From the IMG/VR virus record IMGVR_UViG_3300032301_000602, positions 1-54,093 of that record: a stretch of 54,093 bases of DNA. One strand, given 5' to 3'. The translations under genes were made by a program, and so were the position numbers. Shown piece by piece: positions 12,992 through 50,472 of the stretch. The notes beneath the pieces are model-generated. The model was not told the origin of the DNA. It saw nothing but the letters and a program-made list of their open reading frames with translations, and did not search any database. Numbering within the stretch: position 1 is the first letter of the stretch; each line of letters starts with the position of its first letter. This DNA comes from a virus (lineage: Duplodnaviria > Caudoviricetes).

Positions 12992-14074
12992 ATGGCTGAA
13001 GAATTTACAGGAGTCCCAGCAGCAATGACGCCCCAAGAAATACAGGCTGGCGTTTTTGAGCGTCTTGGATTTGATCCGCAGCAAGCGCAATCCTTTGGCT
13101 ACAATGTGGCATCCGATGGAACCCCGACTTATCCCAAGAGCCGCCGCAAGATGAGGATGGAGGAGGAGTTTAGAAAGCTCCAACAAGAAGAGCTTCAGAA
13201 TCAAAGGCTCATGCAGCAAATGGACATAGAGCAAAAGGAATTGACGCTTAGAGAGTTGGAGCAGCAAGGGCGCATGGAGGATAGGGACATTGCAAGAGAT
13301 GCGGCGTTGGCAAAGGCCGCTCGCGATGCAAAAATTAAAGAGCAATCCCGAAACATAAGAGCAGCGTTTCTTGGCTCAACCCTTCCAGATGGAACAAAAC
13401 TTAATCCAATCAATTTAGAAGATGCGGATTCTCCAGAGAGAATTCAGCGCACCATGTACATGAATGAATACGGCTTGGAGGATCAGGCGACAAAAGAAAT
13501 GGCCAACATGTTTTTGGATGATGCATTTCGTATTAGGGAGAAACGAGCAACCGAAGTTGCCGAACAAGAAAAAGCAGACAAGGCCGCGAGGGTTGGGCTT
13601 GCCAAAGATCTTGGTTCATACGGACTGAGCATTGTTGATTTTGCGGAAAATGGCAAAATAGATTTTGAAAAAGCAAATGAAGCGGTTGGTAAGGCTTATG
13701 CGTCAGGGAAACAAGCCGAAGAAGAAAAGGCTTTAAGCAAGGAGCAACGCAAATCAATTGTCACAAAGATAGATAGTGCCGAAGAGAAGCTTTTGGGCAT
13801 TCGGGGCCGTGAGGCAGCGGCTCAAAAAAGACTTGAAGCAAGGCCAAACAGCAGTGAATACCGAACAGAACTTGAAGCGGCACAACTGGAGCGCGGGATT
13901 TTTGAAGACGAGATCAACAGATTGAATCGTATGATTGGTGGTGGGGCTGTTCCGGCGCAGGCGGCGGGAGGTGGGGAGCCGCAAAGCTTTGATAACGTAG
14001 AAGCGGCTGAAGCTGCCAAGCTGCCCAAAGGAACTATTGTTGTAATTGGTGGACGCCGAGCTAGAATAGACTAA
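12992..14074 (+). CDS. Putative internal virion (ejection) protein
   Basis: Coiled-coil, C-term EAAEAAKLPKGTIVVIGG. Confidence 0.5.
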   Translation: MAEEFTGVPAAMTPQEIQAGVFERLGFDPQQAQSFGYNVASDGTPTYPKSRRKMRMEEEFRKLQQEELQNQRLMQQMDIEQKELTLRELEQQGRMEDRDIARDAALAKAARDAKIKEQSRNIRAAFLGSTLPDGTKLNPINLEDADSPERIQRTMYMNEYGLEDQATKEMANMFLDDAFRIREKRATEVAEQEKADKAARVGLAKDLGSYGLSIVDFAENGKIDFEKANEAVGKAYASGKQAEEEKALSKEQRKSIVTKIDSAEEKLLGIRGREAAAQKRLEARPNSSEYRTELEAAQLERGIFEDEINRLNRMIGGGAVPAQAAGGGEPQSFDNVEAAEAAKLPKGTIVVIGGRRARID

Positions 14075-17000
14075 TGGCCATCACCTTCCTAGATGAAGAA
14101 GAGGATATTGTTGCCGCCACCGAACCCCCCAAGGGTGGTGGCGGGATTACATTTCTAGACGAGGAAGTACCAACCGCCCCAACTCAAGAGCGGCCAAAGA
14201 TTACCTTTTTAGACGAAGAGCCCGAGGCGAAGACTCCCGCTCCCGTTGGCACATCCTTTATTGAGGAGCTTGCTGCTATACCGCAAGCCATCAAGCAGTC
14301 TATCGACCAACCCCTTGAGGCCATGGGGGAAACAGCAGAGGTGTTGGGAGCTTCGGGTCTTGGGGGTACTCTTCGTGGGGCTATTGAGGGACCAGAGGAC
14401 TATGTCCCCGCATCACAGAGATTCATGGAGCCCCAAGAGGGAGAGTTTCAGGTTGCGGGATTTGCTCCCCAGTTCTTGCCCCGCGCTATTGTGGAGCAGG
14501 CAGGACAAATTGGCGGAGCAATACTAACAAGGGCTGGAGGTATGGCTATTGGTGGACTGGCTGGATCGGCCCTTGGCCCCAAAGGAACCGCAGCAGGTGC
14601 TGTGGCTGGTGCTTTTATTGGACCCGCTCTTTTTGAAATGGGACAAATTGTTGGACCTGTGGCCCGTGAACGTGCGGCCAATCAGGGACGAGAAGAGCCC
14701 ACTACCGATGACTTGGCTTGGGCTTGGGCTACCGCTGGAGCTAGTGGTGCGCTTAATGCTGTCGGTGCCAAGTACATACCGGGAGGCGACAAGCTTACCG
14801 GAAGCCTTGCCAAGAGGATTTCGACGGCCATTGCTGGTGAAGGTTCTACCGAGGGGGCGCAAGCTGTGGTTCAGCAGACGGGACAAACCTTTCTTACTGA
14901 GCAGGGGTTTGAGATTAAACCCAAGGAGATTGTCGGAGAGACTATTATTGGTGGTGGTGCTGGCGGGGCAGCGGTGGCGGCAACGGCCCCGTTTACAAAA
15001 GCTGCTGCTGCTGCTGAGACTAAGGTGGTGGCAGAGCAGGTTGCGCCCATCGCGCCTGAAACCGCACAAGCTGTTAGTGAACAGGCCAATCAGGTAATGC
15101 AAGAGGCTCAAGCCGACGAGAATGCCGAAACCCCTGAACAACGAGTAGCCCGTCTTCAAGAAGAAGCTACCGCAGCAGCAGGAATAGAACTAGAAGAAGA
15201 AGTTCCTGTTTCGGGGTTGCCTCCTCAACCCGTCACCCCCACAGAAGGGGTTACCGGAACAACGGCGAGTGTTCCCGTGATGATCACCCGAAAAATGGAG
15301 GCTGACCTACTTTCTCGCGGACTAACTCAGGAACAGGTAAACGCCATGACCCCGCAGGAGGCTAACGACATGTTAGCACAACCCGTGCCCACAGCAGAAG
15401 GCGCAGTAGCCCCTGTAGAGCCAGTAGTTGAGCCAGTATCAGCAGAGCCGCAGCCTGCCGCAATAGTTCCCGCAGGAACGAAAGAGGAGCAAGATTTAAG
15501 TGCCGCGCAAGAGCGAGTAAAGAAGGCACAAGAGGTTGTTGATAGGGTTCGGGATTTGCCCGAAGACAATCCAGAAGTAATGGCGGCATATACCGAGAGA
15601 ACGGAATCACGGAATAATCTGATTCGTTCAGAGGTTGCCGTCCGTCATCCCAATTCAAAAAACATCAGCAGTGAAGAGAGGGCTTTTCTTGCCCCGCTCC
15701 AAGAACTTGCTCCATTGCGTCCAGACGAAGAGCCACTAACCGAGGGTAAAAAATGGCGCAAGGGTGAAGAGGTTGGATACAATGAGAATGTAGGGACAAT
15801 CACCAAGGCAATCCCGCCAGAGGGTCAGTCCAATGTCTTATACCGAGTTGTTACCAAAGAAGACTATGAGCGCATTCTTGCCGCTGGACAGATCGACTCC
15901 GATATGCGTGGAGCCATCACGCCAGACGAGGGAATAAACCTAACGCCTAAAACCGCCACAGCAGCCTATTATCTTCCGCGAGGCGAGACTGGGGTTATTA
16001 TTGCCATTGATACAACAGGTCTGGATCTCAACTTTATTCAAAGTGATTCGTATGTTCGCTCGTTCAAGCCAATTCCCGCAGACAAGATTGTTGGCCGATC
16101 CGACTTTATCCATAAGGACGCCGAAACAGGAGACTACTTACTTCGTCCGCAAGACAATGATCCCGTAACCAACGAGCCCGCATCCATCGTCAACTATACC
16201 AAAGCTGCCCCGACTCCCAAAGCCGCCCCCACAGCGACTCCTCCCGTCGAGGTTGCTCCTGAAACCCCGAATCTTGAACCTCTACGCCGAGTAGCAAGAG
16301 CAGAACAAGCCCCAGAAGATGTTCCTTCTTTGGTGGATGCGGGGTTGGTCGAGGTGTATAAAGATCAGCCAGTGCTTACCGAGGCAGGGATTGCCCTGTT
16401 GCCCGAAGCAGAACGCCCAAGGCTGAACCCCGAAGCCCGAAAGATCCAGATCGACACAGGATCAAACGAAGTAGTAGCCGAAGCCATCGCGAAGGGTCTT
16501 CGTATCGGGGTGGATCAGGTGGGATTCAATGTGCGTATGCCAGCAGGCTGGACGCTGGATGGAGATATCTATGTTCCTCCCACACCGCAGGAAGTAGCTC
16601 CCGAAACTGCAACATTTGCAAAAGGTGAAATGGTTCGCGTCACTAATAGGGTTCCCACTTATGAGGGTGGGCGAGTTGTTGGCGGAAGAGATGAGTTGGT
16701 TGCGGGATCGGTCACTCGCATAATGCCAGATGGCAAAGTTGAAGTAAGGCTACAGCGCGGGGGATACCAAACGCTTGCACCGAATGAAGTTCAGAAAATA
16801 GAAAGGCCAGCCCCCGAAGCAAGAGAATCCCGCAGGGAACCCTCTGTCGAGATGCGGCAGCAATACGCTCCCAAGACCGAAGAGGAGCAAGCATCATTTG
16901 ATAAAGCATCGTCAAACAAGGTGCTGGCGCGAAGCCCTCAACTTGCAGTAGCCGCAGTCAGGATGAAGAACGGCGAGATCACTGCTGGTGAGTACGCCGA

Positions 17001-20000
17001 CTTGGTGGATGCCATCGATCCGTTTACGGCCAAGGGCGCAGATCCCATCCCGACTAATGAGAAGATCTATCAATACATGTCCAAGACCATGGGGGCCAGC
17101 CCGAACACCGAGGAGGGCAGGGCAAAAATTCAAAAGATTGGCGCAGCAATTACGAGTGGCAAGGTTGTTGAATTCCGCATTGATATTCCCACATACAACG
17201 AATCAACAAAAGCTGGAGACACTGTATATTCTGTTACCGCCCATGAGCCAGTTTCCGAAACGGCAAAACAAGTAGGAAAGACGATCTCTCATCTTGGTAT
17301 TGCGAAAGTCACTAATCCGACTTTTATGAATCGCGCCATTTCTGGCAAAGGCGCAGCAGTTGCTATTGCCGCTGGTGCTGGCAAGTTCCCGCTGGCTACA
17401 GTGAAGGGTAACTACGAACCAATCACCGATCTCCCCGCAGACATCAATGATCCTAACGTCTGGACTGAGGCTGGCTACAACCCGATCCGTTCTAGTTTCT
17501 TTGTGGACACCCGCAGCAAGGATGCTGTGGTTGGTGGATCTGAAGCCATTATGGTTGGCTCCCGTGTGTTTGTTAAGGATGCAGTTTTGGAGCCTCGCCC
17601 CACTGGAGTCACGATGGGTGAGCGTTATGCCAAGATCCAGATGCCGCGCCCTGCTGGCATGGAGACCGAAGCAGTAGCGACCAAGCTGGAGTCTTTGGGA
17701 TTCGGGCGGGGTGGGATCGTATCGGTGGTCAATGAACCCGATGCTTCCTTTGAAGGCCGCACTATTATCCGAGATGGGAAGGTAGTTGGCATTGAGCTAA
17801 ACGCCGCAGCCCTGAAAGACGATGCGGCTGTTGAGCGAGTCCTAAACCATGAGATTGCGGAATCCGCCAATGCCGATGGAGCATTGAATGCTTTGGTTGC
17901 GGGGTTGACCCCGAAAGAAAGAAAAGAAATCAACGATGCCATCACTAGGTTGGGCTACGCAGAGAAGGCCAGAACCGCCGAGGAAGCCGCCAGAGCCGTC
18001 GAGCTATTAGCCGAAGGATGGAGGGGCAGGAAGTGGTTTGATCGCGCCGTAGCGCGTGTTGAGGCATGGGCCAACAAGCTTGGTTACAAGCTCACCCGCC
18101 GAGCCGCCGAATACATTGCGGCCAGAAACATGGCAGAAGTCAATGACGCTTTCCGTAAACGGACAATTGCCGATGCGCTGGCTAACTTAAAGGGGGCAAG
18201 AAGGGTTGACTTCAATGGACTTAGCGCCGTCTTGATTCCTCCGAGCGAGATGGGGTTTGCTTACTCTATCGCCGCATACCATGGCACTCCGCATGAGATT
18301 AAAGGAAGGTTTCTTACATCTAAGATCGGAACTGGTGAAGGGGCGACAGCCTACGGATGGGGGCTATACTTTGCAGAAAATGTTGAGGTAGCTAAAGAAT
18401 ACAGAGAAAGACTTTCTCGCGGGCAATATGCTTTGATTTACAAAGGCGTTCCAGTCCACGAACTTCCAAGCCAACAGAAAAATGTAATTCTTAAACTTGT
18501 TGCTGGAATTCCCAAAGAAACAATTGTTGGAGATCTTGAGTCTAGCCTTAGAAGGCAAGAAGAATCCAAGCCAGAGGATTGGGCTGTCCCAGAAAACAGA
18601 GAAAGAGTTATAGCGGATCTTAAAGAAGAGATTGAAATAGCTAGAGAAATAGAAAAATCAAATATCAAGCCACGTTCCGCTGGTAATCTTTACACTGTAG
18701 AAATTGATGTAAACCCAGAAGAACTTTTTGATTGGGATAAAACATTTCCAGAACAAAATGAAAAAGTAAAAACGGCAATCCGCAATATTCTTGGAGATGA
18801 TGTTGTTGATTTTATATTGAAATCAACAAACAAGAACAGAAATGGCGGATGGTTCTATGAGATGATTGGTGGGTCAACCGATGCCAAGACCGAAGCCACC
18901 TCAAAGAAAGCCGCATCAGAACTTTTATTCAATAATGGAATTAATGGCATCAAATATCTTGACCAAGGAAGCAGAGATGCTGGAGAGGGCAGTAGTAATT
19001 TTGTAATATTCGATGAAAACCTAATCAAGATCACTGCAAGAAATGGCAGAGAGATAGACATCCGCGAATCCCGAAGAGAAGACGCTATCCCCACCTTCTC
19101 CGAGGGAAGCCCCGAAGCATCTACTCTTTCCAACATGAAGGAGTCTATGGCCAAAGTGGATGCGGCGTCCGAGGGCAAGCCAAACCCCGAAAACAAACCC
19201 ACCTACAAGATCAGCGAGATAGCCTCTGTCTGGATGGATCAGGGTGGAGATATCCGCCAACTCCAAGATCTTATTTCGGAGAATACCAATCTTACCCCAA
19301 CCAATGCAGCAAAGGTGGCCAATGCCATTGCCAAGCAATACGATATTCAGCAGTCCATCGCTACAGCATTCATTGAAACCCAAACGGGACTATCTGTTGA
19401 GGCACTGCCAGAGGGTGTGACCCTTCCCAAAGAGGTTGACCCTGATCGTCCGAAGCCCGTCATGTCTCGTCTATTTGATGTGTTCATGGGGGTTCGGGTT
19501 CCCCCCGTCAAGATTCAGGTCAATGAAAAGGCCGCGCTTAAAGATCAGATCCGACTCAAGGCCGCAGCCAACCGAGCAGCTAAAGCAGAGCAGAAGCGCA
19601 CCGCAGAAGAGGTTGTTGAGATCATCAAGGCCATGGAACTGCTTGGCCCCGTGCGTCCGAAGCAGGTTCAGGCTTTAGCTAAACGCGCAGCCCGTGTCAT
19701 TTGGACAAGCGAAAAGAGTGTCGAGGCTTTCTCTGAATACGCCGCCAAGGTGGTCGAGAATACCAACTACGATGCCGATCTCCGCGAGGCCAAGGATGCA
19801 CAGAAGCGAGCCAAACAACTTTCAACTCAAAAGAAGGTGGCGATGGGTCCGCAGCGCGAAGTGCTTGGAGACATTAGCAAGATCCCCGTCAATAAGCTGG
19901 ACGATCCCCGCATGTTTGCCGAGGCCGTGAACTACTACTTGCGTGGATTCAAGGCGGTGTTGTCACCTGATTATGTGGTCATTCCCGATGCCGAGATGGA

Positions 20001-22809
20001 GAGCTATCTTTCGGGAGCCCAGTCCGAGACGCAAAGAAACCAGCGGGATCTTGATCGCGAAGCCAATGAGCGTCTGGCCAAAAAATACGGAATAGAATCG
20101 GATCAGGTCAACGAAATGATGGAGTCAATTGACATCATCAAGCAGATTGAAGCCCAAGAAAACAGAGAGGCACTGGATAACCTCTTGACCGAGAAAGCTG
20201 TCGAGACCCAGCAGGGATTGCGCGAATACAATACGGACAACCTCCGAAGCGAACAGCGTCCCATTGTTTCTTCCATGCTCAAGGTTGATCCCAAGGCCCT
20301 TGATCCCGAAGAGCGTCAGCGTTTCATTCGCATCACAAACAATATCATTTACAACAACCAGACCAATGGCGCGGAATACTTTGTCGCTGTTGCCAAGGGC
20401 CAGCAGAGTGCCCGTGAGGCAGCACAAGACTCCGAAATGATAGCCAAGAACAGGGCTTGGATCAATCTACTTCCTCGTTTTGTTTCGGAAAGAATGCAGC
20501 GCGGATGGGCTCTTGAGTTGCAGTCTGTTGCTGACACGTTCCGCAACGCTTTTGGCAAGGGAGCTATGGCCAAGGTCTACGATGCCATGGGCATGTTGGA
20601 TCTTAACCTTGGGTTTACCAAGGCAAACAATACGATTGATGAGATTCAGAAAAAGATAGCTGAATTCCACAGGGGTATCGAAAAGAAATACAAGGAAACG
20701 GCTCGCAACCAAGACGGCCTCTTGGCCGAGGGAATCGTTGGATTCTTGATCCAGTCCATTCCCAAAAAAGACGAGCTTGCCTCCATCAACCAACGCCGAG
20801 ATCTGATTCGTCAAGACATTGCCAATCGCAGGAGATCATCCGCGCAACCAGATCGGATTGCCATGGCGGATCGCATCGAAACTATTCTCAATCAAATTGA
20901 TGGGGATAGCGTTGAGGCAATCCTGAACAACATGAAGCGCGACTTTCCTCCTAACTACGAATCTCTGATCTGGTACAAGGACACCCTGCTTCCACAATAC
21001 AAAGACTTCTTGAAGAACTTTGACGAGAACTTCAACGATCAGGCCAACAACTACGATAACCCCAACTATCTTACAATTGGATTTACTTCTGCTGGTCCGT
21101 CACTTACCATCACCAATGAAGAGCAGGGCTTGTTCTATAGCCAAGTTAGCCTGAATCCGAAACAGTCTGCTTATACCATAAAGCGTGTTGATTACTCCGT
21201 TCTTCCCAAAGACCCGACCACTAAGAGGTCGAAGGAAATTGAATTCAATCTTCGTCGCAACGTGTTCAATGGTCTCTCCGATCAGATCAACAAGGCTTAT
21301 ACTTCCAGTGGCTGGCAGCGCATCGCCTCCTTTATGAAGACCCCCGAGGCCGAGACGGTGTTTGGTGGTGCGGCCAACAAGGACTTCTTTATTGAACGAC
21401 TCAATCGTCTGCGCCTCTCCCGTATGCGCCGTGGTTCTATGGGTAGTGGTGGGGCTATTGAGAAAGCTGTCGATTCACTTAGCATAATCTCGCGCAAGCT
21501 TGGGACAGGAATTGCCCTTGGTGGTATTTATCAGTGGATCAAACAGCCCCCAGACCAGCTTATCACGGCATGGGGGAGTGGAGGACGGGGGGATCTTCTT
21601 GCCAAAAACATTGCACCCAAGACGCAAAAATTAGCAAGAACCCTCCTTAACAAGTTCTCCATTGGTCGCCGTGGTGACGCCTCTGCTGGTTACAAATACA
21701 TCAACCAGATGGAAGGCCATCAGAACAGGCTTGAGCGTTACTTTAGTGAAAGCAAGTGGGATCAGGCCAAGGAGCAGGCGGGTAATATTGCTGATGTGTG
21801 GATGGTTGCACTCAAGTCCTCCGACTTCTTGGCGGCATCCGCAGCATGGATGACCTACTACGAGGGCGAACTTAACAAACAAAACATCAAGATTGATGAC
21901 TGGTCCAAGGAAGCGGATCTAATTGAGTCCGATCCAGCAAGGCGTCAGGCGGCGGCGTTTGCCGAACAGATGACCGACATCTATCAGGGATCAAGTGACC
22001 CGACTTCCATGGCTACGTTTGCTCAAAGCGGGAAGACTGGTTGGGAAAACTTTGTCAAAGCCATCTTTGTTCCGTTCAACTCCTTTGCCATCCAGCAACG
22101 CATGAGGCTTTACTCCGATGCGCGTGATGCCCTCAATGGAAGCAAGAGTGGAGTGGGTGGGCTTTCTGGAACAATTGGTGGTCTCATTCTTTTTCACACA
22201 ACCAAGCGATATGTTATCCCCGCCATTTCTGGTGTTGGTATCGGGGTTCTCTACGGACTCATGGGTGTTGATATGGATGAGCCCGATGAGGAGAAGCAGA
22301 AGGAAGAAGCAAATAAGAATTGGAGACAATTCCTTGCGGACCTTACTGGCAACTTGTTGGTTGGAGGGACGCCGCAAATTGTTGAATCCCAGTTTATTGA
22401 TGCTATGAATCGGGCATCGTACCTTGTTTCTCTCCAGCTTGAGATTGATTCAATCCTTAATGATAAGGGTGAGATCATGTCCTATGATCAATACTCCAAA
22501 GAGCGTTCGCCATTCTATCGCTACAAGTCTTACGATAATGCCATGAGCTTGGGGATGCTGGACATTGGCATGGGTCAGGTGGAGCAGGTGGCACTCCAAA
22601 CCAAGATGCTGGCATCTCCTGAAGAGATGGAGATGTACACCCCAGAAGAACAGCGTCTCCTCTACTTCTCCGCCCTATCCGAGTGGTTGCTACTCATGCG
22701 CCTTAACGACACTGACTTTGCCCGATTGGTTGGCAAGGCTCGACGCGACATGATCAAGGCGGCAGAAGACCGCGAGAAGGCTATCAAAGCCATCCGTAGC
22801 GGACGCTAA
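14074..22809 (+). CDS. Large polyvalent internal virion protein with ART-like domains
   Basis: 2911 aa; 3x ITFLDEE; Gly/Ala hydrophobic segment; LYRVV..GINLT ART-like domain (~15835-16095); LNHEIAE; AYHGTPH..GTGEG..YGWGLYFAEN (~18274-19040); helical C-half. Confidence 0.8.
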   Translation: MAITFLDEEEDIVAATEPPKGGGGITFLDEEVPTAPTQERPKITFLDEEPEAKTPAPVGTSFIEELAAIPQAIKQSIDQPLEAMGETAEVLGASGLGGTLRGAIEGPEDYVPASQRFMEPQEGEFQVAGFAPQFLPRAIVEQAGQIGGAILTRAGGMAIGGLAGSALGPKGTAAGAVAGAFIGPALFEMGQIVGPVARERAANQGREEPTTDDLAWAWATAGASGALNAVGAKYIPGGDKLTGSLAKRISTAIAGEGSTEGAQAVVQQTGQTFLTEQGFEIKPKEIVGETIIGGGAGGAAVAATAPFTKAAAAAETKVVAEQVAPIAPETAQAVSEQANQVMQEAQADENAETPEQRVARLQEEATAAAGIELEEEVPVSGLPPQPVTPTEGVTGTTASVPVMITRKMEADLLSRGLTQEQVNAMTPQEANDMLAQPVPTAEGAVAPVEPVVEPVSAEPQPAAIVPAGTKEEQDLSAAQERVKKAQEVVDRVRDLPEDNPEVMAAYTERTESRNNLIRSEVAVRHPNSKNISSEERAFLAPLQELAPLRPDEEPLTEGKKWRKGEEVGYNENVGTITKAIPPEGQSNVLYRVVTKEDYERILAAGQIDSDMRGAITPDEGINLTPKTATAAYYLPRGETGVIIAIDTTGLDLNFIQSDSYVRSFKPIPADKIVGRSDFIHKDAETGDYLLRPQDNDPVTNEPASIVNYTKAAPTPKAAPTATPPVEVAPETPNLEPLRRVARAEQAPEDVPSLVDAGLVEVYKDQPVLTEAGIALLPEAERPRLNPEARKIQIDTGSNEVVAEAIAKGLRIGVDQVGFNVRMPAGWTLDGDIYVPPTPQEVAPETATFAKGEMVRVTNRVPTYEGGRVVGGRDELVAGSVTRIMPDGKVEVRLQRGGYQTLAPNEVQKIERPAPEARESRREPSVEMRQQYAPKTEEEQASFDKASSNKVLARSPQLAVAAVRMKNGEITAGEYADLVDAIDPFTAKGADPIPTNEKIYQYMSKTMGASPNTEEGRAKIQKIGAAITSGKVVEFRIDIPTYNESTKAGDTVYSVTAHEPVSETAKQVGKTISHLGIAKVTNPTFMNRAISGKGAAVAIAAGAGKFPLATVKGNYEPITDLPADINDPNVWTEAGYNPIRSSFFVDTRSKDAVVGGSEAIMVGSRVFVKDAVLEPRPTGVTMGERYAKIQMPRPAGMETEAVATKLESLGFGRGGIVSVVNEPDASFEGRTIIRDGKVVGIELNAAALKDDAAVERVLNHEIAESANADGALNALVAGLTPKERKEINDAITRLGYAEKARTAEEAARAVELLAEGWRGRKWFDRAVARVEAWANKLGYKLTRRAAEYIAARNMAEVNDAFRKRTIADALANLKGARRVDFNGLSAVLIPPSEMGFAYSIAAYHGTPHEIKGRFLTSKIGTGEGATAYGWGLYFAENVEVAKEYRERLSRGQYALIYKGVPVHELPSQQKNVILKLVAGIPKETIVGDLESSLRRQEESKPEDWAVPENRERVIADLKEEIEIAREIEKSNIKPRSAGNLYTVEIDVNPEELFDWDKTFPEQNEKVKTAIRNILGDDVVDFILKSTNKNRNGGWFYEMIGGSTDAKTEATSKKAASELLFNNGINGIKYLDQGSRDAGEGSSNFVIFDENLIKITARNGREIDIRESRREDAIPTFSEGSPEASTLSNMKESMAKVDAASEGKPNPENKPTYKISEIASVWMDQGGDIRQLQDLISENTNLTPTNAAKVANAIAKQYDIQQSIATAFIETQTGLSVEALPEGVTLPKEVDPDRPKPVMSRLFDVFMGVRVPPVKIQVNEKAALKDQIRLKAAANRAAKAEQKRTAEEVVEIIKAMELLGPVRPKQVQALAKRAARVIWTSEKSVEAFSEYAAKVVENTNYDADLREAKDAQKRAKQLSTQKKVAMGPQREVLGDISKIPVNKLDDPRMFAEAVNYYLRGFKAVLSPDYVVIPDAEMESYLSGAQSETQRNQRDLDREANERLAKKYGIESDQVNEMMESIDIIKQIEAQENREALDNLLTEKAVETQQGLREYNTDNLRSEQRPIVSSMLKVDPKALDPEERQRFIRITNNIIYNNQTNGAEYFVAVAKGQQSAREAAQDSEMIAKNRAWINLLPRFVSERMQRGWALELQSVADTFRNAFGKGAMAKVYDAMGMLDLNLGFTKANNTIDEIQKKIAEFHRGIEKKYKETARNQDGLLAEGIVGFLIQSIPKKDELASINQRRDLIRQDIANRRRSSAQPDRIAMADRIETILNQIDGDSVEAILNNMKRDFPPNYESLIWYKDTLLPQYKDFLKNFDENFNDQANNYDNPNYLTIGFTSAGPSLTITNEEQGLFYSQVSLNPKQSAYTIKRVDYSVLPKDPTTKRSKEIEFNLRRNVFNGLSDQINKAYTSSGWQRIASFMKTPEAETVFGGAANKDFFIERLNRLRLSRMRRGSMGSGGAIEKAVDSLSIISRKLGTGIALGGIYQWIKQPPDQLITAWGSGGRGDLLAKNIAPKTQKLARTLLNKFSIGRRGDASAGYKYINQMEGHQNRLERYFSESKWDQAKEQAGNIADVWMVALKSSDFLAASAAWMTYYEGELNKQNIKIDDWSKEADLIESDPARRQAAAFAEQMTDIYQGSSDPTSMATFAQSGKTGWENFVKAIFVPFNSFAIQQRMRLYSDARDALNGSKSGVGGLSGTIGGLILFHTTKRYVIPAISGVGIGVLYGLMGVDMDEPDEEKQKEEANKNWRQFLADLTGNLLVGGTPQIVESQFIDAMNRASYLVSLQLEIDSILNDKGEIMSYDQYSKERSPFYRYKSYDNAMSLGMLDIGMGQVEQVALQTKMLASPEEMEMYTPEEQRLLYFSALSEWLLLMRLNDTDFARLVGKARRDMIKAAEDREKAIKAIRSGR

Positions 22810-28166: not shown

Positions 28167-28411
28167 ATCCTGATCCCTTCTTCATCCAACAGGATGCCTT
28201 GGTCCCTAAAATGGTGGAGCAGTTGCCCCATCAACTCGTCTGAAACGATATCTTCAATGTCAATGAAGAATTGTTTGCCGAGCTTGCGGACCTCTGGAAT
28301 GGTCATGGTCAGTTCAATAGTTGAGCTATCGTTCCATATGACAACGACCCCGCCTCGCCCCCGATTGATTGAGGTGTTGGCAGTTGTGGTTATGTGGCGG
28401 TGGGTTTTCAT
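28163..28411 (-). CDS. Hypothetical early protein
   Basis: 82 aa, ATGA coupling. Confidence 0.55.
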   Translation of the reverse strand: MKTHRHITTTANTSINRGRGGVVVIWNDSSTIELTMTIPEVRKLGKQFFIDIEDIVSDELMGQLLHHFRDQGILLDEEGIRI

Positions 28412-44960: not shown

Positions 44961-45004
44961 AGGGTGTATATTGACCAACAAACCTAACTCGCGTTCAATC
45001 TTCG

Positions 45005-45274
45005 TCAACTCTTCTTTTGGCGCGGTCTCCTTGGGGGTCGCGCTTTCTTTTTCTGCTCCCTGTGGAAAAGTTTGTGGCAGACCTTGCATAGGCAGATCAG
45101 GTCATCAAGGTGGTTTAGCTCGTCCCCCTTATGCTCGTAGGTTCGGTGGTGGGCTTGAAGTTCTAGGGGGCTATTGCATACCCCACACCTCCAGCCGTAG
45201 CGTTTCTTGACTAGTCGGCTTACCTCCTTCCAGTAGGGGGTTTTCAAGTAGGCCCTGTAAGATTCTTTATCCAC
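45005..45274 (-). CDS. Small HNH endonuclease
   Basis: YLKTPYW..CGVC..LQAHHRTY..DLICLCKVCH. Confidence 0.8.
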   Translation of the reverse strand: MDKESYRAYLKTPYWKEVSRLVKKRYGWRCGVCNSPLELQAHHRTYEHKGDELNHLDDLICLCKVCHKLFHREQKKKARPPRRPRQKKS

Positions 45275-45294
45275 TAAACAATTTTACTCTCTTG

Positions 45295-45323
45295 TTGACA
45301 CTCTGCAACACTGGCGTTACTCT
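45295..45323 (+). promoter_or_regulatory. Sigma70 promoter of RNA1
   Basis: TTGACA-N17-TACTCT. Confidence 0.7.
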
Positions 45324-45329
45324 GTGACG

Positions 45330-45410
45330 ATCCTTGTATCTGGGTGCGGTTCCATTTTGTTGCGGCTGTCTTCCAGACCTCGCTTCGGAGCCGCACCCTC
45401 TTTCTTTTCT
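45330..45410 (+). ncRNA. Candidate small RNA (RNA1): 12-bp stem, 33-nt loop, U-rich tail
   Basis: GGGTGCGGTTCC(45342-53)/GGAGCCGCACCC(45387-98) followed by TCTTTCTTTTCT. Confidence 0.55.
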
Positions 45411-45450
45411 TGACTTAATTTTGAACGTATCGTAGCCTGCGATTGTCTGG
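45410..45450 (+). promoter_or_regulatory. Nested promoters of RNA2
   Basis: TTGACT-N17-TAGCCT (45410-38) and TTGAAC-N18-GTCTGG (45421-50). Confidence 0.55.
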
Positions 45451-45870
45451 AAGGACAGTCGTAAAGTGGACGAGACATACGCCATTAGAACCTGTGACGA
45501 GGTATGCAAGGGTAAAACCGCCGCACTCACAGTTAGCCATCCGTCCCATCGCCTGAACACATTGCGGCGTGGGAATCCAGAGAAAATCTGGTAAGCGCGA
45601 GGGATAATACCCTCGGAGGTTGATTGCGGTTGTTTAAAGGTCTAAGAGCGGCTTCGGAGCCTAGATCGCAGTCTGTGGAATAAAGCGGAGGACTCACCCA
45701 AGAGGAATGAGAATCCAAATTTGACTATGCCTTTGCCCCTGCGGGGGCGAGGTGTGGTCATACGGTAGGATCTAGCCCATAGGAATTATTAATCCAATGG
45801 AGCGGCGTTTCGGGGTTCAAGCCAATAGAGCCGCTGATAACGGCGGGGCGACTGGCCCCAGCCCCGCCTA
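45438..45870 (+). ncRNA. Candidate large structured ncRNA (RNA2, ~430 nt)
   Basis: About ten consecutive hairpins with G-U pairs on the + strand; no credible ORF. Confidence 0.6.
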
Positions 45871-45902
45871 GTAACACAATCGCCATAACCCATAAAAAAA
45901 CA

Positions 45903-45931
45903 TTGAACAAACCCGCATCTATGGTGTCTAT
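45903..45931 (+). promoter_or_regulatory. TTGAAC-N17-GTCTAT promoter
   Basis: A-tract upstream; ATG 45938 6 nt downstream. Confidence 0.7.
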
Positions 45932-45945
45932 TGAACCATGACTAA

Positions 45946-46092
45946 TGGTGGGATCATTGAGGGGCGGCTGGAGATATCTGGACGCAGCGACCTGAGTCCT
46001 ACCACCTCTTTTGGGAGCGGGGCGACCCGGCATGCAAATGCAGAACCAGCAACGATTCGGGGGAATTGTCGTTGGTGCGCCACCCCGTTCCT
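45946..46092 (+). ncRNA. Two structured domains (RNA3 or structured leader of 46103)
   Basis: TGGTGGGATCA/TGAGTCCTACCA stem; GGGAGCGGGG/CCCCGTTCCT stem closing a 3-way junction. Confidence 0.45.
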
Positions 46093-46102
46093 AAATCTTT
46101 CT

Positions 46103-46381
46103 ATGAAATACATACTACTAGCAATAATCGGGGCCAGCGTAAGCTATGGCCAGCAGTTCAACGGAACCATTGTGGACTTGGACAGTGGACGCATCCAGAG
46201 ATTTCAAGGTCAAACAATTGACCGAGACCAAGACCATCGTGATCGTATGGCAAACTATGATCGAATGATTGCGGAAACTTATGCCTCTATCGAAGCAATG
46301 AGGCAGGAAGGTGAAATGCAGCAGCAGACCTACGAGCTTCGCAAGCAGACCGAATTACTACGAAAGATTGCCAATGAGTAA
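46103..46381 (+). CDS. Secreted/periplasmic protein
   Basis: Signal-peptide-like MKYILLAIIGASVSYG then coiled coil. Confidence 0.6.
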   Translation: MKYILLAIIGASVSYGQQFNGTIVDLDSGRIQRFQGQTIDRDQDHRDRMANYDRMIAETYASIEAMRQEGEMQQQTYELRKQTELLRKIANE

Positions 46382-48175: not shown

Positions 48176-49147
48176 ATGAACATCGTCTTTGCCTACCATA
48201 GTGGAGACTGTGAGTTGGCCTTGGAGAGTGCCAAGGCTATTGTGGAACAGGGTGTAAACATCCGCCACAAGGCCACAGTATGCTGCACTGAGGGAACCCC
48301 GCTACTTCCGCAAATTACGGAAGAGCTAAAGAAGGTATTCCCAGAGGTTGGTGGGATTATCGCTCAAGACGGATTCAATGGATGGCCCCTTGGTCCCAAT
48401 CAAATGTTTGCTGACGCATCTTCCCATTGCTACCAATACGAAGACCCTTGGTACTTTTGGGAACCGGACTGCGTCCCTATGACTGAAGGGTGGGTTGACA
48501 AGCTGGAGGAGGAATTCAACAAGAATACGGGCAAGATCATGGGATGCTTTATTGAGGGCGGGGTGGCTCCGAGTGGTAAGATTATGTATCAACTCATTGT
48601 CTGGAGTGCTGTTTATCCGTCAAAATTTCTCAATGGGTGCAGGATTGCGGCCAATCTTTACAACTACAACATCTACTTCAAGGACAAGAATGTGGTTCCC
48701 GAACCTTGGGATGTGCGTTGCCGCTGGGAATTCCTTCAGTATGGGCGAGACACGCCGCTTATCAGAGCCTACTGGAAGAGTTGCAACTACCAACGCAAGG
48801 GAGAATCCATTGTCTTTTTTGCCGAAAACGCCGAAGCTCAAGACGTTCAGAATGTTACCTGCCCAGACCGCACCGTAAGCCCCAAGGCCGTTGTAGTCCA
48901 CGGGTGCAAGGACGGATCTCTCCACCGGATGATCTACGATAAATATATCCCTCCTGTTTATGTGGAGATTGAACAACCGGAGGAAATCGTTGTCCAACCC
49001 CTACAATCGAAGGTCACCTTTGTGGCCAGCGACAACAAAACCGAATCGGATAAGTTTTTGGCCAACCTGAGATCACTAGGTAAAACCTTGGGCAAGCCAA
49101 AGAAATCCCGAAAGAAAAAGAAACCACAATGCAAACAGAACAAGTAA
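48176..49147 (+). CDS. Glycosyltransferase-like protein (paralog of 22813-23598)
   Basis: GWPLGPNQMF, WYFWEPDCVPM..WVDKLEEEF..IMG, SAVYP, VVHGCKDGSL. Confidence 0.55.
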   Translation: MNIVFAYHSGDCELALESAKAIVEQGVNIRHKATVCCTEGTPLLPQITEELKKVFPEVGGIIAQDGFNGWPLGPNQMFADASSHCYQYEDPWYFWEPDCVPMTEGWVDKLEEEFNKNTGKIMGCFIEGGVAPSGKIMYQLIVWSAVYPSKFLNGCRIAANLYNYNIYFKDKNVVPEPWDVRCRWEFLQYGRDTPLIRAYWKSCNYQRKGESIVFFAENAEAQDVQNVTCPDRTVSPKAVVVHGCKDGSLHRMIYDKYIPPVYVEIEQPEEIVVQPLQSKVTFVASDNKTESDKFLANLRSLGKTLGKPKKSRKKKKPQCKQNK

Positions 49148-50472
49148 TCTACGAACAGTCAGCAGAAACCGCCATCCTGTCCTGTCTCTTCCACGGGGCG
49201 GTAGAAGACCAAAAGGAAATCATTTCAACAATCAGGGAAGACCACTTCTTTGTCCATGAACACAAGATCATCTTCAACTCTGTTTTAAGGACTATTGGTC
49301 GCGGCATCCATGCGGACTACATCAACATCAAGAACGAGCTTGAGGGCAACAAGCAGCTAGAAGAAATCGGAGGGGACCATGTGTTGACGGAGATTGCCTC
49401 CTTCTGTCCCAACGCCCACAACTGGAAGCGTTACTATCCCAAGCTGGAAGAGGCTCGCTATCGCAGGAGTTTGGAATACTTGGCATCCGACATGATATGC
49501 AAGGCGCGGGATCGGGATCTAAAGCTTGAGGAACTCAAGAACTGGTCAGAGACCAGCGTAATGAAGGCCGACTACCTGATAGACAATACGGACCAGCTAT
49601 CGATCAAGGGAGTGGTGGAGAGGGCCTTGGACAATATTGAGTCCACCATGAGGGGCGAGCCCAAGATCGGTATCCGCACAGGTCTGGTTCCGGTGGATGA
49701 TCTTCTTATGTTCGGGATGCGCGGTGGAGACATGGTGGTTCTCGCTGCCAGACCAGCAGTTGGCAAGACCAGTGCTGCCATGCAGATTGCCGAACATGTG
49801 GCCTTGGACCTGAAGAAAAGGGTGCTGATGTTCTCGCTTGAGATGACCAGCGTTGCCCTAATGGAGAGAATGATTCGGAGTCGAGCCAGAGTCCGCGCTG
49901 CCGATATCCTCGCTCAGTCTATTACTCCGTATCAGAAACAATCACTAGGCAAGGCTTACGAGGAGGTTCGGGATTCCAACATCTTGTGCGATGACACCTC
50001 TGGCAAGTCCATGGGGTACATCAAGTCCATTGCCCGTCGAGCCCACCAGAAAGAGCCGATTGACCTGATCATCATTGACTACCTCCAGCTTCTCAAGGGA
50101 GACAGCAAGAGGGCCAAAGACAACCGAGTCAATGAGGTCGAGGAGATTAGTGGCGGGATCAAGGAACTAGCCAAGACTCTGAAGGTGCCAGTTTTAGTTC
50201 TCGCCCAACTTAACCGCGACCCCGAAAAAAGAGGGGGAAGGCCAAGCCTTTCAGATCTCAAGGGATCTGGAGCCATTGAGCAGGACGCCGACATGGTGAT
50301 GATTCTTCACTGCGATGAAGAGGATGCCAAGAGCCACACCCAAATCCCAACCGTGGAATTTATTGTAGCCAAAAACAGGGAGGGAGCAACTGGTGTCTTG
50401 CCAATGAGTTTCAATAAGTCTATAACTAGGTTTGAAATTCTTAATAAAAATGAAAGACAATTTAACTCTTGA
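49129..50472 (+). CDS. dnaB: Replicative DNA helicase
   Basis: LAARPAVGKT, FSLEM, IIIDYLQL, LAQLNR, SDLKGSGAIEQDAD, VAKNREG. Confidence 0.95.
   Translation: MQTEQVIYEQSAETAILSCLFHGAVEDQKEIISTIREDHFFVHEHKIIFNSVLRTIGRGIHADYINIKNELEGNKQLEEIGGDHVLTEIASFCPNAHNWKRYYPKLEEARYRRSLEYLASDMICKARDRDLKLEELKNWSETSVMKADYLIDNTDQLSIKGVVERALDNIESTMRGEPKIGIRTGLVPVDDLLMFGMRGGDMVVLAARPAVGKTSAAMQIAEHVALDLKKRVLMFSLEMTSVALMERMIRSRARVRAADILAQSITPYQKQSLGKAYEEVRDSNILCDDTSGKSMGYIKSIARRAHQKEPIDLIIIDYLQLLKGDSKRAKDNRVNEVEEISGGIKELAKTLKVPVLVLAQLNRDPEKRGGRPSLSDLKGSGAIEQDADMVMILHCDEEDAKSHTQIPTVEFIVAKNREGATGVLPMSFNKSITRFEILNKNERQFNS

Follow-up and report, generated by a model that had tools for sequence, protein, structure and literature searches.

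A candidate antisense RNA that can pair with the predicted 5' end of a large structured RNA in uncultured freshwater phages

Introduction

In the plasmid ColE1, a small structured antisense RNA, RNA I, is complementary to the 5' end of RNA II, a structured non-coding RNA of about 500 nt (as far as the account in PMC11012335 goes). By the same account, RNA I is made from the opposite strand over its target, the complementarity being automatic and perfect. RNA II serves as a primer, is processed by RNase H and acts at an origin, and the system includes a Rom-like protein. The sequence type of such an RNA pair would set a specificity comparable to that of plasmid incompatibility groups. Two phage systems have the regulator on the same strand as its target. 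The c4 antisense RNA of the immI region of phages P1 and P7 lies upstream of its target, is cut from a longer transcript and is directed at the ribosome-binding region of icd/ant, in the portion of PMC8201110 that deals with it. The CI RNA of P4 (seqA/seqC) regulates the operon on the replication side of a mobile element and pairs with two sites, one on each side of it, causing premature termination, according to the relevant part of PMC4825925.

The locus described here comprises a predicted small hairpin RNA, RNA1, and a predicted large structured RNA, RNA2, whose promoter follows RNA1 on the same strand. RNA1 resembles RNA I in being complementary to the 5' end (predicted +1) of a long structured RNA, and from their predicted folds both partners can present complementary hairpin loops in a kissing geometry. 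In contrast to the opposite-strand arrangement of ColE1, RNA1 and RNA2 share the + strand, with loop and target 66 nt apart, and their complementarity is imperfect and kept by co-evolution; the primer-related functions listed above belong to RNA II. As in c4, the antisense RNA precedes its target on one strand, and loop sequences pair with a downstream site. Unlike in c4, the regulator is separated from its target by a promoter and is directed at the 5' end of a non-coding RNA: the site 45445–64 precedes a non-coding structured RNA, rather than lying over a ribosome-binding site or being one of two flanking sites, and the Rfam C4 antisense RNA model had no match in the DNA analyzed here, or in 45000–46200 at E-values up to 10. 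The likeness to P4 CI lies in a same-strand antisense RNA on the replication side of a mobile element; here there is one co-varying site and no terminator after the target.

By analogy, the RNA1/RNA2 pair would work like ColE1 RNA I/RNA II, P1 c4 and P4 CI, but it is a member of none of them, as it fails defining features of each. Here, the regulator is a terminator-like hairpin upstream of the promoter of a large RNA, and the target is the 5' end of that RNA. In the listed literature on phage antisense and kissing systems, and in the passages cited above, nothing describes such a pair.

Results and Discussion

Genomic setting

The DNA analyzed (the window) is a linear IMG/VR virus record of 54,093 bases with a CheckV completeness of 74%. 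RNA1 and RNA2 lie in a stretch of about 820 nt without a convincing gene (45275–46096). On its left are leftward genes, encoding a small HNH endonuclease and an HTH protein, and on its right are rightward genes, extending to a DnaB helicase (49129–50472). Other open reading frames of the window matched a DNA polymerase/exonuclease, an exonuclease, a dCMP deaminase, several HNH nucleases and a large terminase. Among the tested subset of open reading frames, no integrase, repressor, primase or initiator was found, nor any sign of a temperate lifestyle. A tRNA scan of the window found none, no Rfam family reached its gathering score in the window, and nothing related appeared in 45000–46200 at E-values up to 10. 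Searches with blastn against isolated phages gave no match, and tblastn with DnaB gave relatives with less than 60% identity only. The window also holds a single open reading frame of 2,911 residues (14074–22809, + strand).

The HNH gene is the left neighbor of RNA1 only in locus families A–C; in families D–G an HTH protein occupies that place, so RNA1 is not coupled to the HNH gene. A second terminator-like hairpin with a T-run (45019–45054, + strand) is located between the minus-strand HTH and HNH genes. One related locus (L006) lacks everything from about this hairpin to the end of RNA1, a gap that looks as if the HNH gene and RNA1 had been lost or gained between two hairpin-plus-T-run sites. 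The features of the locus are listed in Table 1.

Table 1. Features of the RNA1/RNA2 locus in the window.
Feature	Position	Strand	Description
Small HNH endonuclease gene	45005–45274	−	89 aa; GTG start at 45274; Pfam HNH, E = 4e-4; PHROG HNH families, E down to 8e-10
P1, candidate RNA1 promoter	45295–45323	+	TTGACA (45295–45300), 17 nt, TACTCT (45318–23); predicted start about 45330
RNA1, predicted, about 75–80 nt	45330–45411	+	12-nt leader, hairpin 45342–45398, U-rich tail 45399–45411; both ends predicted
RNA1 specificity loop, 33 nt	45354–45386	+	Segment 2', 45360–70; segment 1', 45371–78
P2a, RNA2 promoter, predicted sigma-70 type	45410–45438	+	−35 TTGACT (45410–15), 17 nt, −10 TAGCCT (45433–38), 6 nt to G45445
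TTGAAC, part of predicted P2b	45421–45426	+	In 47 of 47 distinct loci; GTC 18 nt downstream; alternative start about 45457
Target at predicted RNA2 5' end	45445–45464	+	Segment 1, 45445–52; bulge, G45453; segment 2, 45454–64
RNA2, large structured RNA, about 450 nt	45445–45890	+	Variable 5' module 45445–64, then conserved core

RNA1 and its pairing with the start of RNA2 in the window

The outer stem of RNA1 is formed by GGGTGCGGTTCC (45342–53) and GGAGCCGCACCC (45387–98) and comprises 12 bp with one U-G, which is kept in 24 of 24 sequences of families A–C. The U-tail ascribed to RNA1 in an earlier sequence-only reading of this DNA is present directly after the stem (TCTTTCTTTTCTT, 45399–45411). 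This GC-rich stem, with 9 G-C pairs and the adjoining U-tract, is predicted to be an intrinsic terminator; the terminator scan, which accepts loops of 3–8 nt only, skipped it. Folded alone, the region 45325–45410 has an energy of −31.7 kcal/mol (z = −4.4, 200 shuffles). The hairpin stems of the related loci are likewise GC-rich, 12–14 bp long and followed by a T-run.

Within the loop, 45371–78 (UUCCAGAC) pairs with 45445–52 (GUCUGGAA), and 45360–70 (UUGCGGCUGUC) pairs with 45454–64 (GACAGUCGUAA) with two G-U pairs, leaving G45453 bulged. The 18-bp pairing of 45361–78 with 45445–63 (one bulge, two G-U) that had been proposed from the sequence is exact. The accompanying proposal, a 7-bp target hairpin GAUUGUC-UGGAAG-GACAGUC (45441–60), holds for the DNA, but the 5' arm would fall outside the transcript if RNA2 starts at G45445; such a start leaves a shorter 5'-terminal hairpin, GUCU-GGAA-GGAC. 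A kissing geometry is possible, since the RNA1 interior reads as the reverse complement of the RNA2 5' hairpin and both could present complementary loops. When RNA1 and the initial 75 nt of RNA2 were co-folded, RNAcofold gave small values for cognate and non-cognate partners alike; nested-only folding cannot enter a closed hairpin loop.

In a chance test, the 33-nt loop was compared by RNAduplex with 10,810 pieces of 45 nt from both strands. The target duplex has an energy of −36.2 kcal/mol, versus a mean of −15.5 (sd 4.7), and ranks about fifth (top ~0.05%). Three of the better-scoring pieces trivially cover the strand opposite the loop, and one unrelated piece scored better (−36.8 at 28319, minus strand), the next values being −34.7 and −34.4. 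Judged from this window alone, the pairing is suggestive, not decisive. Sites of such similar duplex energy would be expected if the true targets of RNA1 were elsewhere, in phage or host mRNAs, with the 5' end of RNA2 serving as a decoy or sponge or pairing as a by-product. With the type of this window compared, however, the competing sites are G-U-rich duplexes within coding DNA, and the sole partner shown to co-vary is the RNA2 start (see below). No second target site stands out in a scan of the window, and we consider targets elsewhere to be highly improbable.

The hexamers of P1 are conserved upstream of the hairpin in most types; P1 is absent from the promoter scan listing. On the minus strand the same bases can be read as ..GTAAC-N16-GTCAAC, the phage-type promoter from which the HNH gene would be transcribed leftward, and in families D–G the + strand −10 has no key A. 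Because of this coincidence with the mirror image of a leftward promoter motif, and because of the −10 in families D–G, a promoter of its own is doubtful for RNA1; RNA1 may plausibly be an independent transcript. No contig of the RNA-labelled runs falls on 45330–45534, a region for which such libraries do not bear on RNA1, as small RNAs are lost in them.

Homologous loci and covariation

The phages belong to an uncultured freshwater group. The first homologs were obtained from DnaB-based loci and with blastn, and in their alignment the loop and the downstream segment are wholly different in letters between phages, yet complementary. Retrieval with a conserved 23-base RNA2 motif gave 39 viral, 29 metagenome and 2 genome stretches. 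Together with the earlier loci there were 78 motif loci; six with less than 200 nt upstream were dropped, and the other 72 represent 49 distinct sequences. The two genome-collection matches (L121 and L122) were taken as chance, having no TTGAAC or hairpin on the upstream side, which was the side compared, and the scan of the genome collection identified no host or prophage.

Leaving out these two, 47 distinct loci remain, and 40 of them (56 member loci) have a GC-rich hairpin with a T-run, corresponding to RNA1, directly before the RNA2 promoter. RNA1 is missing from the other seven (L006, L091, L095, L100, L113, L116 and L134). No relocated RNA1 was found in these seven, the best matches being the promoter motif or sites inside RNA2, and further scans, while yielding a new specificity type (L159), turned up no RNA1 apart from RNA2.

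The loop is complementary to its own RNA2 start in 39 of the 40 distinct hairpin-bearing loci. These 40 represent 35 distinct loop/target combinations, and in 34 of them the cognate duplex has an energy between −28.6 and −41.7 kcal/mol, compared to means of −16 to −22 for shuffled loops. The cognate value is below all 200 loop shuffles in 32 of the 35, tied in one (L110) and not lower in two (L031 and L131). L131 is the true exception, with a different stem and a non-complementary loop (−22.0); its hairpin is probably just a terminator.

The targets fall into seven clusters, and in the 7 × 7 matrix of type representatives the cognate is the best partner in all seven rows and all seven columns. 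None of 200,000 non-identity permutations reached the cognate sum of −215.5 (mean −141.8, sd 13.8). An eighth type (L159) is complementary by eye, including a U-G in segment 1. Column counts in families A–C (24 sequences) show that 99.0% of the cells are paired, versus 92.8% after shuffling and 38–50% with the partner slid. Alignment pair 25–132 occurs as GC, CG, AU, GU and UA, and pairs 36–118, 37–117 and 38–116 are altered on both sides in 10 sequences.

Complementarity between loop and target across the homologs is far beyond chance, and, on this comparative evidence, their pairing is selected. Because the regulator is in tandem with its target and not antisense to it, the complementarity is direct evidence of selection. 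The sequence-only reading had suggested a same-strand antisense switch or an alternative pseudoknot in a read-through transcript, and had named loss of complementarity in homologs as the observation that would count against it. The opposite was found: the two segments change together through at least seven to eight types, which supports the reading in either form.

Promoters and the start of RNA2

The −10 element of P2a conforms to TAnnnT in 46 of the 47 distinct loci, L095 being the one without it, TTGACT-like −35 bases stand 17 nt before it, and T13, A14 and T18 are invariant or nearly so in alignment A1. Seven nucleotides after TAnnnT, at an invariant G (45445), the complementarity starts abruptly. 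Over the 35 combinations, the paired fraction is 26–37% at −1 and −2, 94–100% from +1 to +8, about half from +9 to +14, and 66–89% from +15 to +23. Dropping all bases upstream of the G changes the mean duplex energy from −33.0 to −31.0, at a cost of 2 kcal/mol. Additionally, a short hairpin of the form GUC(U)-loop-(A)GAC opens every RNA2 from that G, including those at loci without RNA1. The best-supported prediction for the start of RNA2 is G45445.

The separate RNA2 promoters of the sequence-only reading are borne out as predictions, in the form of the conserved P2a and the TTGAAC-based P2b. Its start near 45457, which would omit most of the target (segment 1 would be dropped from RNA2), is a real alternative, since TTGAAC-N17-GTCwAw recurs before phage genes. 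P2a and P2b may both be real. Two further candidate signals were dropped: WTTGAAC alone, for which there is no enrichment in the window (26 matches to the word TTGAAC versus 22 expected), and TAATTTTG (45416–23) as a Bacteroidota −7 box, whose TA is not conserved (L089 and L082).

The longer motif TTGAAC-N17-GTC(T/A)A(T/A) is located 6–9 nt before the start codons (ATG) of several genes in the window and its relatives (window 45902–45937, 39558 (−), 41439 (−), 47551 (+) and 44993 (−); also L091 and L030). It looks like a phage-specific promoter giving leaderless or nearly leaderless mRNAs, and we take it to be similar in form to the promoters of ECF sigma factors.

The abrupt boundary bears on whether the two segments belong to separate RNAs. 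In transcripts reading through from RNA1 into RNA2, the loop and the downstream segment could instead form a long-range pseudoknot. RNA1 would then be no free regulator; the pairing would mask or insulate the 5' region of RNA2, or the hairpin would be a regulated terminator swayed by abundant RNA2. Pairing in cis is supported by the same covariation, the loop never leaves the strand of its target and keeps a constant distance of ~66 nt from it, the promoter of RNA1 is a candidate, and the known same-strand system P4 CI acts on its own transcript (PMC4825925). However, a sharp start of the complementarity at the predicted +1 of a promoter between the segments is unexpected for a purely internal pseudoknot, and the strong stem and U-tract should stop most read-through. 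We regard a cis element of this kind as somewhat unlikely, while giving it real weight.

Pairing as RNA or as DNA

The mismatches of the two segments are informative about strand. In the 35 combinations, 114 of 833 pairs are G-U in the + strand duplexes, compared to 32 in the minus-strand versions. The intermolecular helices of families A–C contain 22 G-U cells versus 7 non-standard cells, and these seven are, by eye, due to the alignment of L115 and L082 being shifted by one column. Of the 35 combinations, 25 have the more stable duplex on the + strand and 10 on the minus strand; thus, energy alone does not fix the strand. From the distribution of G-U pairs, pairing between + strand RNAs is most likely.

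Viewed as DNA, the segments constitute imperfect inverted repeats of ~25 bp, with the −35 and −10 elements in the 66 bp between them, and could be the operators of a type-specific looping repressor or the arms of an invertible promoter. Their type-specific replacement resembles that of the immunity modules of heteroimmune phages, as a DNA-level repeat would allow. DNA recognition, however, would not bias the mismatches to + strand G-U pairs. Moreover, the unpaired gap between the half-segments differs between arms and types, the RNA2 side having 1 to ~12 bases more, and in this the segments do not resemble protein operators. An inverton has both orientations in populations, whereas the promoter piece is in one orientation in all RNA2 loci with enough upstream DNA, with no inverted copy, and no strand-changing joint was found at the site in the one DNA run mapped. 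No recombinase or repressor was found among the tested subset of open reading frames. We consider a DNA-level function of the repeat very unlikely. Taken together, the evidence shows a selected pairing, most likely between + strand RNAs, that begins at the +1 predicted for RNA2.

Exchange of the cassette between phages

RNA2 cores that are 96–99% identical occur in loci of different types. The cores of L102 and L107, for example, are 99.0% identical over 497 nt and have different loop/target types, and 13 locus pairs combine a core identity of at least 93% with a target score below 0.6. Loop similarity and target similarity are correlated (r = 0.83), and the promoter between the segments also changes with type. 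Since promoter, loop and target change together, a cassette of ~110 nt moves as a unit. Loop and target are 66 nt apart and travel together; therefore, the covariation from type to type is partly linkage. Cassette exchange does not account for the internal complementarity of each cassette.

Module swapping on near-identical cores looks like selection for distinct specificities. Heteroimmunity offers a parallel, related phages differing in matched regulator and target sequences, as with the a' and b' loops of c4. A structure acting purely in cis needs no distinct specificities, and the wholesale replacement of the pair between cores of such identity is a further point against it.

RNA2

The RNA2 core begins with the helix AGUGG (45465–69)/CCAUU (45482–86) and ends with the hairpin GGCGGGGCGACTGGCCCCAGCCCCGCC (45846–72). 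A consensus fold of 38 sequences contains 53 pairs, 26 of which show compensatory changes, and starts at 45465, right after the target. The single-sequence fold has a z-score of −4.6. No Rfam match to RNA2 was found, divergent homologs included. Short contigs of three RNA-labelled runs fall inside 45535–45900, one of them being identical to the window over 45650–45862; they give a weak hint of RNA2 expression, as contigs carry no transcript ends, one run is RNA by guess, and DNA is possible in any. RNA2 works without RNA1, given that seven distinct RNA2 loci have no RNA1.

RNA2 heads the side of the genome that carries DnaB. Two related loci, L032 and L011, have no RNA2, and an initiator/DnaD-like gene adjoins the slot (167 aa in L032; in L011 the contig ends after its first 25 aa). 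For the idea that RNA2 replaces an initiator gene these are too few loci: only the two fit it, and L131 has both RNA2 and the initiator/DnaD-like gene.

Several loci carry optional RNA2 insertions of ~100 nt, of two kinds and at one point of the fold, after GGGAAUCC, which are variable expansion domains. The carriers are L090, L110, L125, L129 and L151 (A1 columns ~175–295) and L102, L107, L112 and L138. RNA2 is followed by a second conserved structured stretch (window 45938–46096, −65.2 kcal/mol, z = −3.0). One of its stems, GGUGGGA...UCCUACC, covaries from T-A to C-G among homologs, and a long helix GGGAGCGGGG...CCACCCCG(U/C)UCC lies just before a small secreted-looking gene at 46097. An open frame (MTNGGIIEG...) also runs through the stretch in the reading frame of that gene, and coding or RNA are both possible; L030 and L032 have an insertion of ~200 nt within its equivalent. 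The slot after RNA2 holds a tRNA-Met gene in L095 (5091–5165). Downstream of the second TTGAAC, the same slot in L091-type loci (L091, L100, L131 and L135) holds a sequence GGGGGAGAG..GGATTCGACG, whose start presumably resembles the 5' end of tmRNA; ARAGORN and Rfam gave no tmRNA call for it.

Proposed mechanism and significance

The reading we prefer, with about evenly balanced confidence, is that RNA1 is a trans-acting, specificity-determining antisense RNA directed at the 5' end of RNA2, with a probably negative effect. RNA1 would be a small hairpin RNA ending at its own U-tract, and RNA2 a structured non-coding RNA of ~450 nt, transcribed in the same direction from the promoter that follows immediately. 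The 33-nt loop of RNA1 would pair with the first ~20–25 nt of RNA2, opening the small protective 5'-terminal hairpin of RNA2 and forming a long duplex. The duplex may expose RNA2 to RNase III-type cleavage or block its productive fold. The free 5' end of the target could wind fully into the closed loop, which fits the boundary at +1. Loop and RNA2 5' end would constitute a matched 'lock and key' cassette, swapped whole between nearly identical phages. That RNA1 is a separate transcript and acts in trans is what we infer, as are the sign of the regulation and the role of RNA2.

A bolder proposal is that RNA2 starts or licenses the replication of a virulent double-stranded DNA phage, as a ColE1-like pre-primer or origin RNA, with RNA1 as its RNA I-like inhibitor. 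We think this unlikely, though worth stating for its consequence: if true, the seven to eight RNA1/RNA2 types would be incompatibility or exclusion groups, and co-infecting relatives would each control only their own replication.

An antisense pair of the kind we favor would be a natural, multi-allelic set of orthogonal RNA–RNA recognition pairs in uncultured phages. The pair offers a way to study by experiment a large, conserved RNA of phages that has neither an Rfam match nor a known function, and the effect of RNA1 on RNA2 should reveal the purpose of RNA2.
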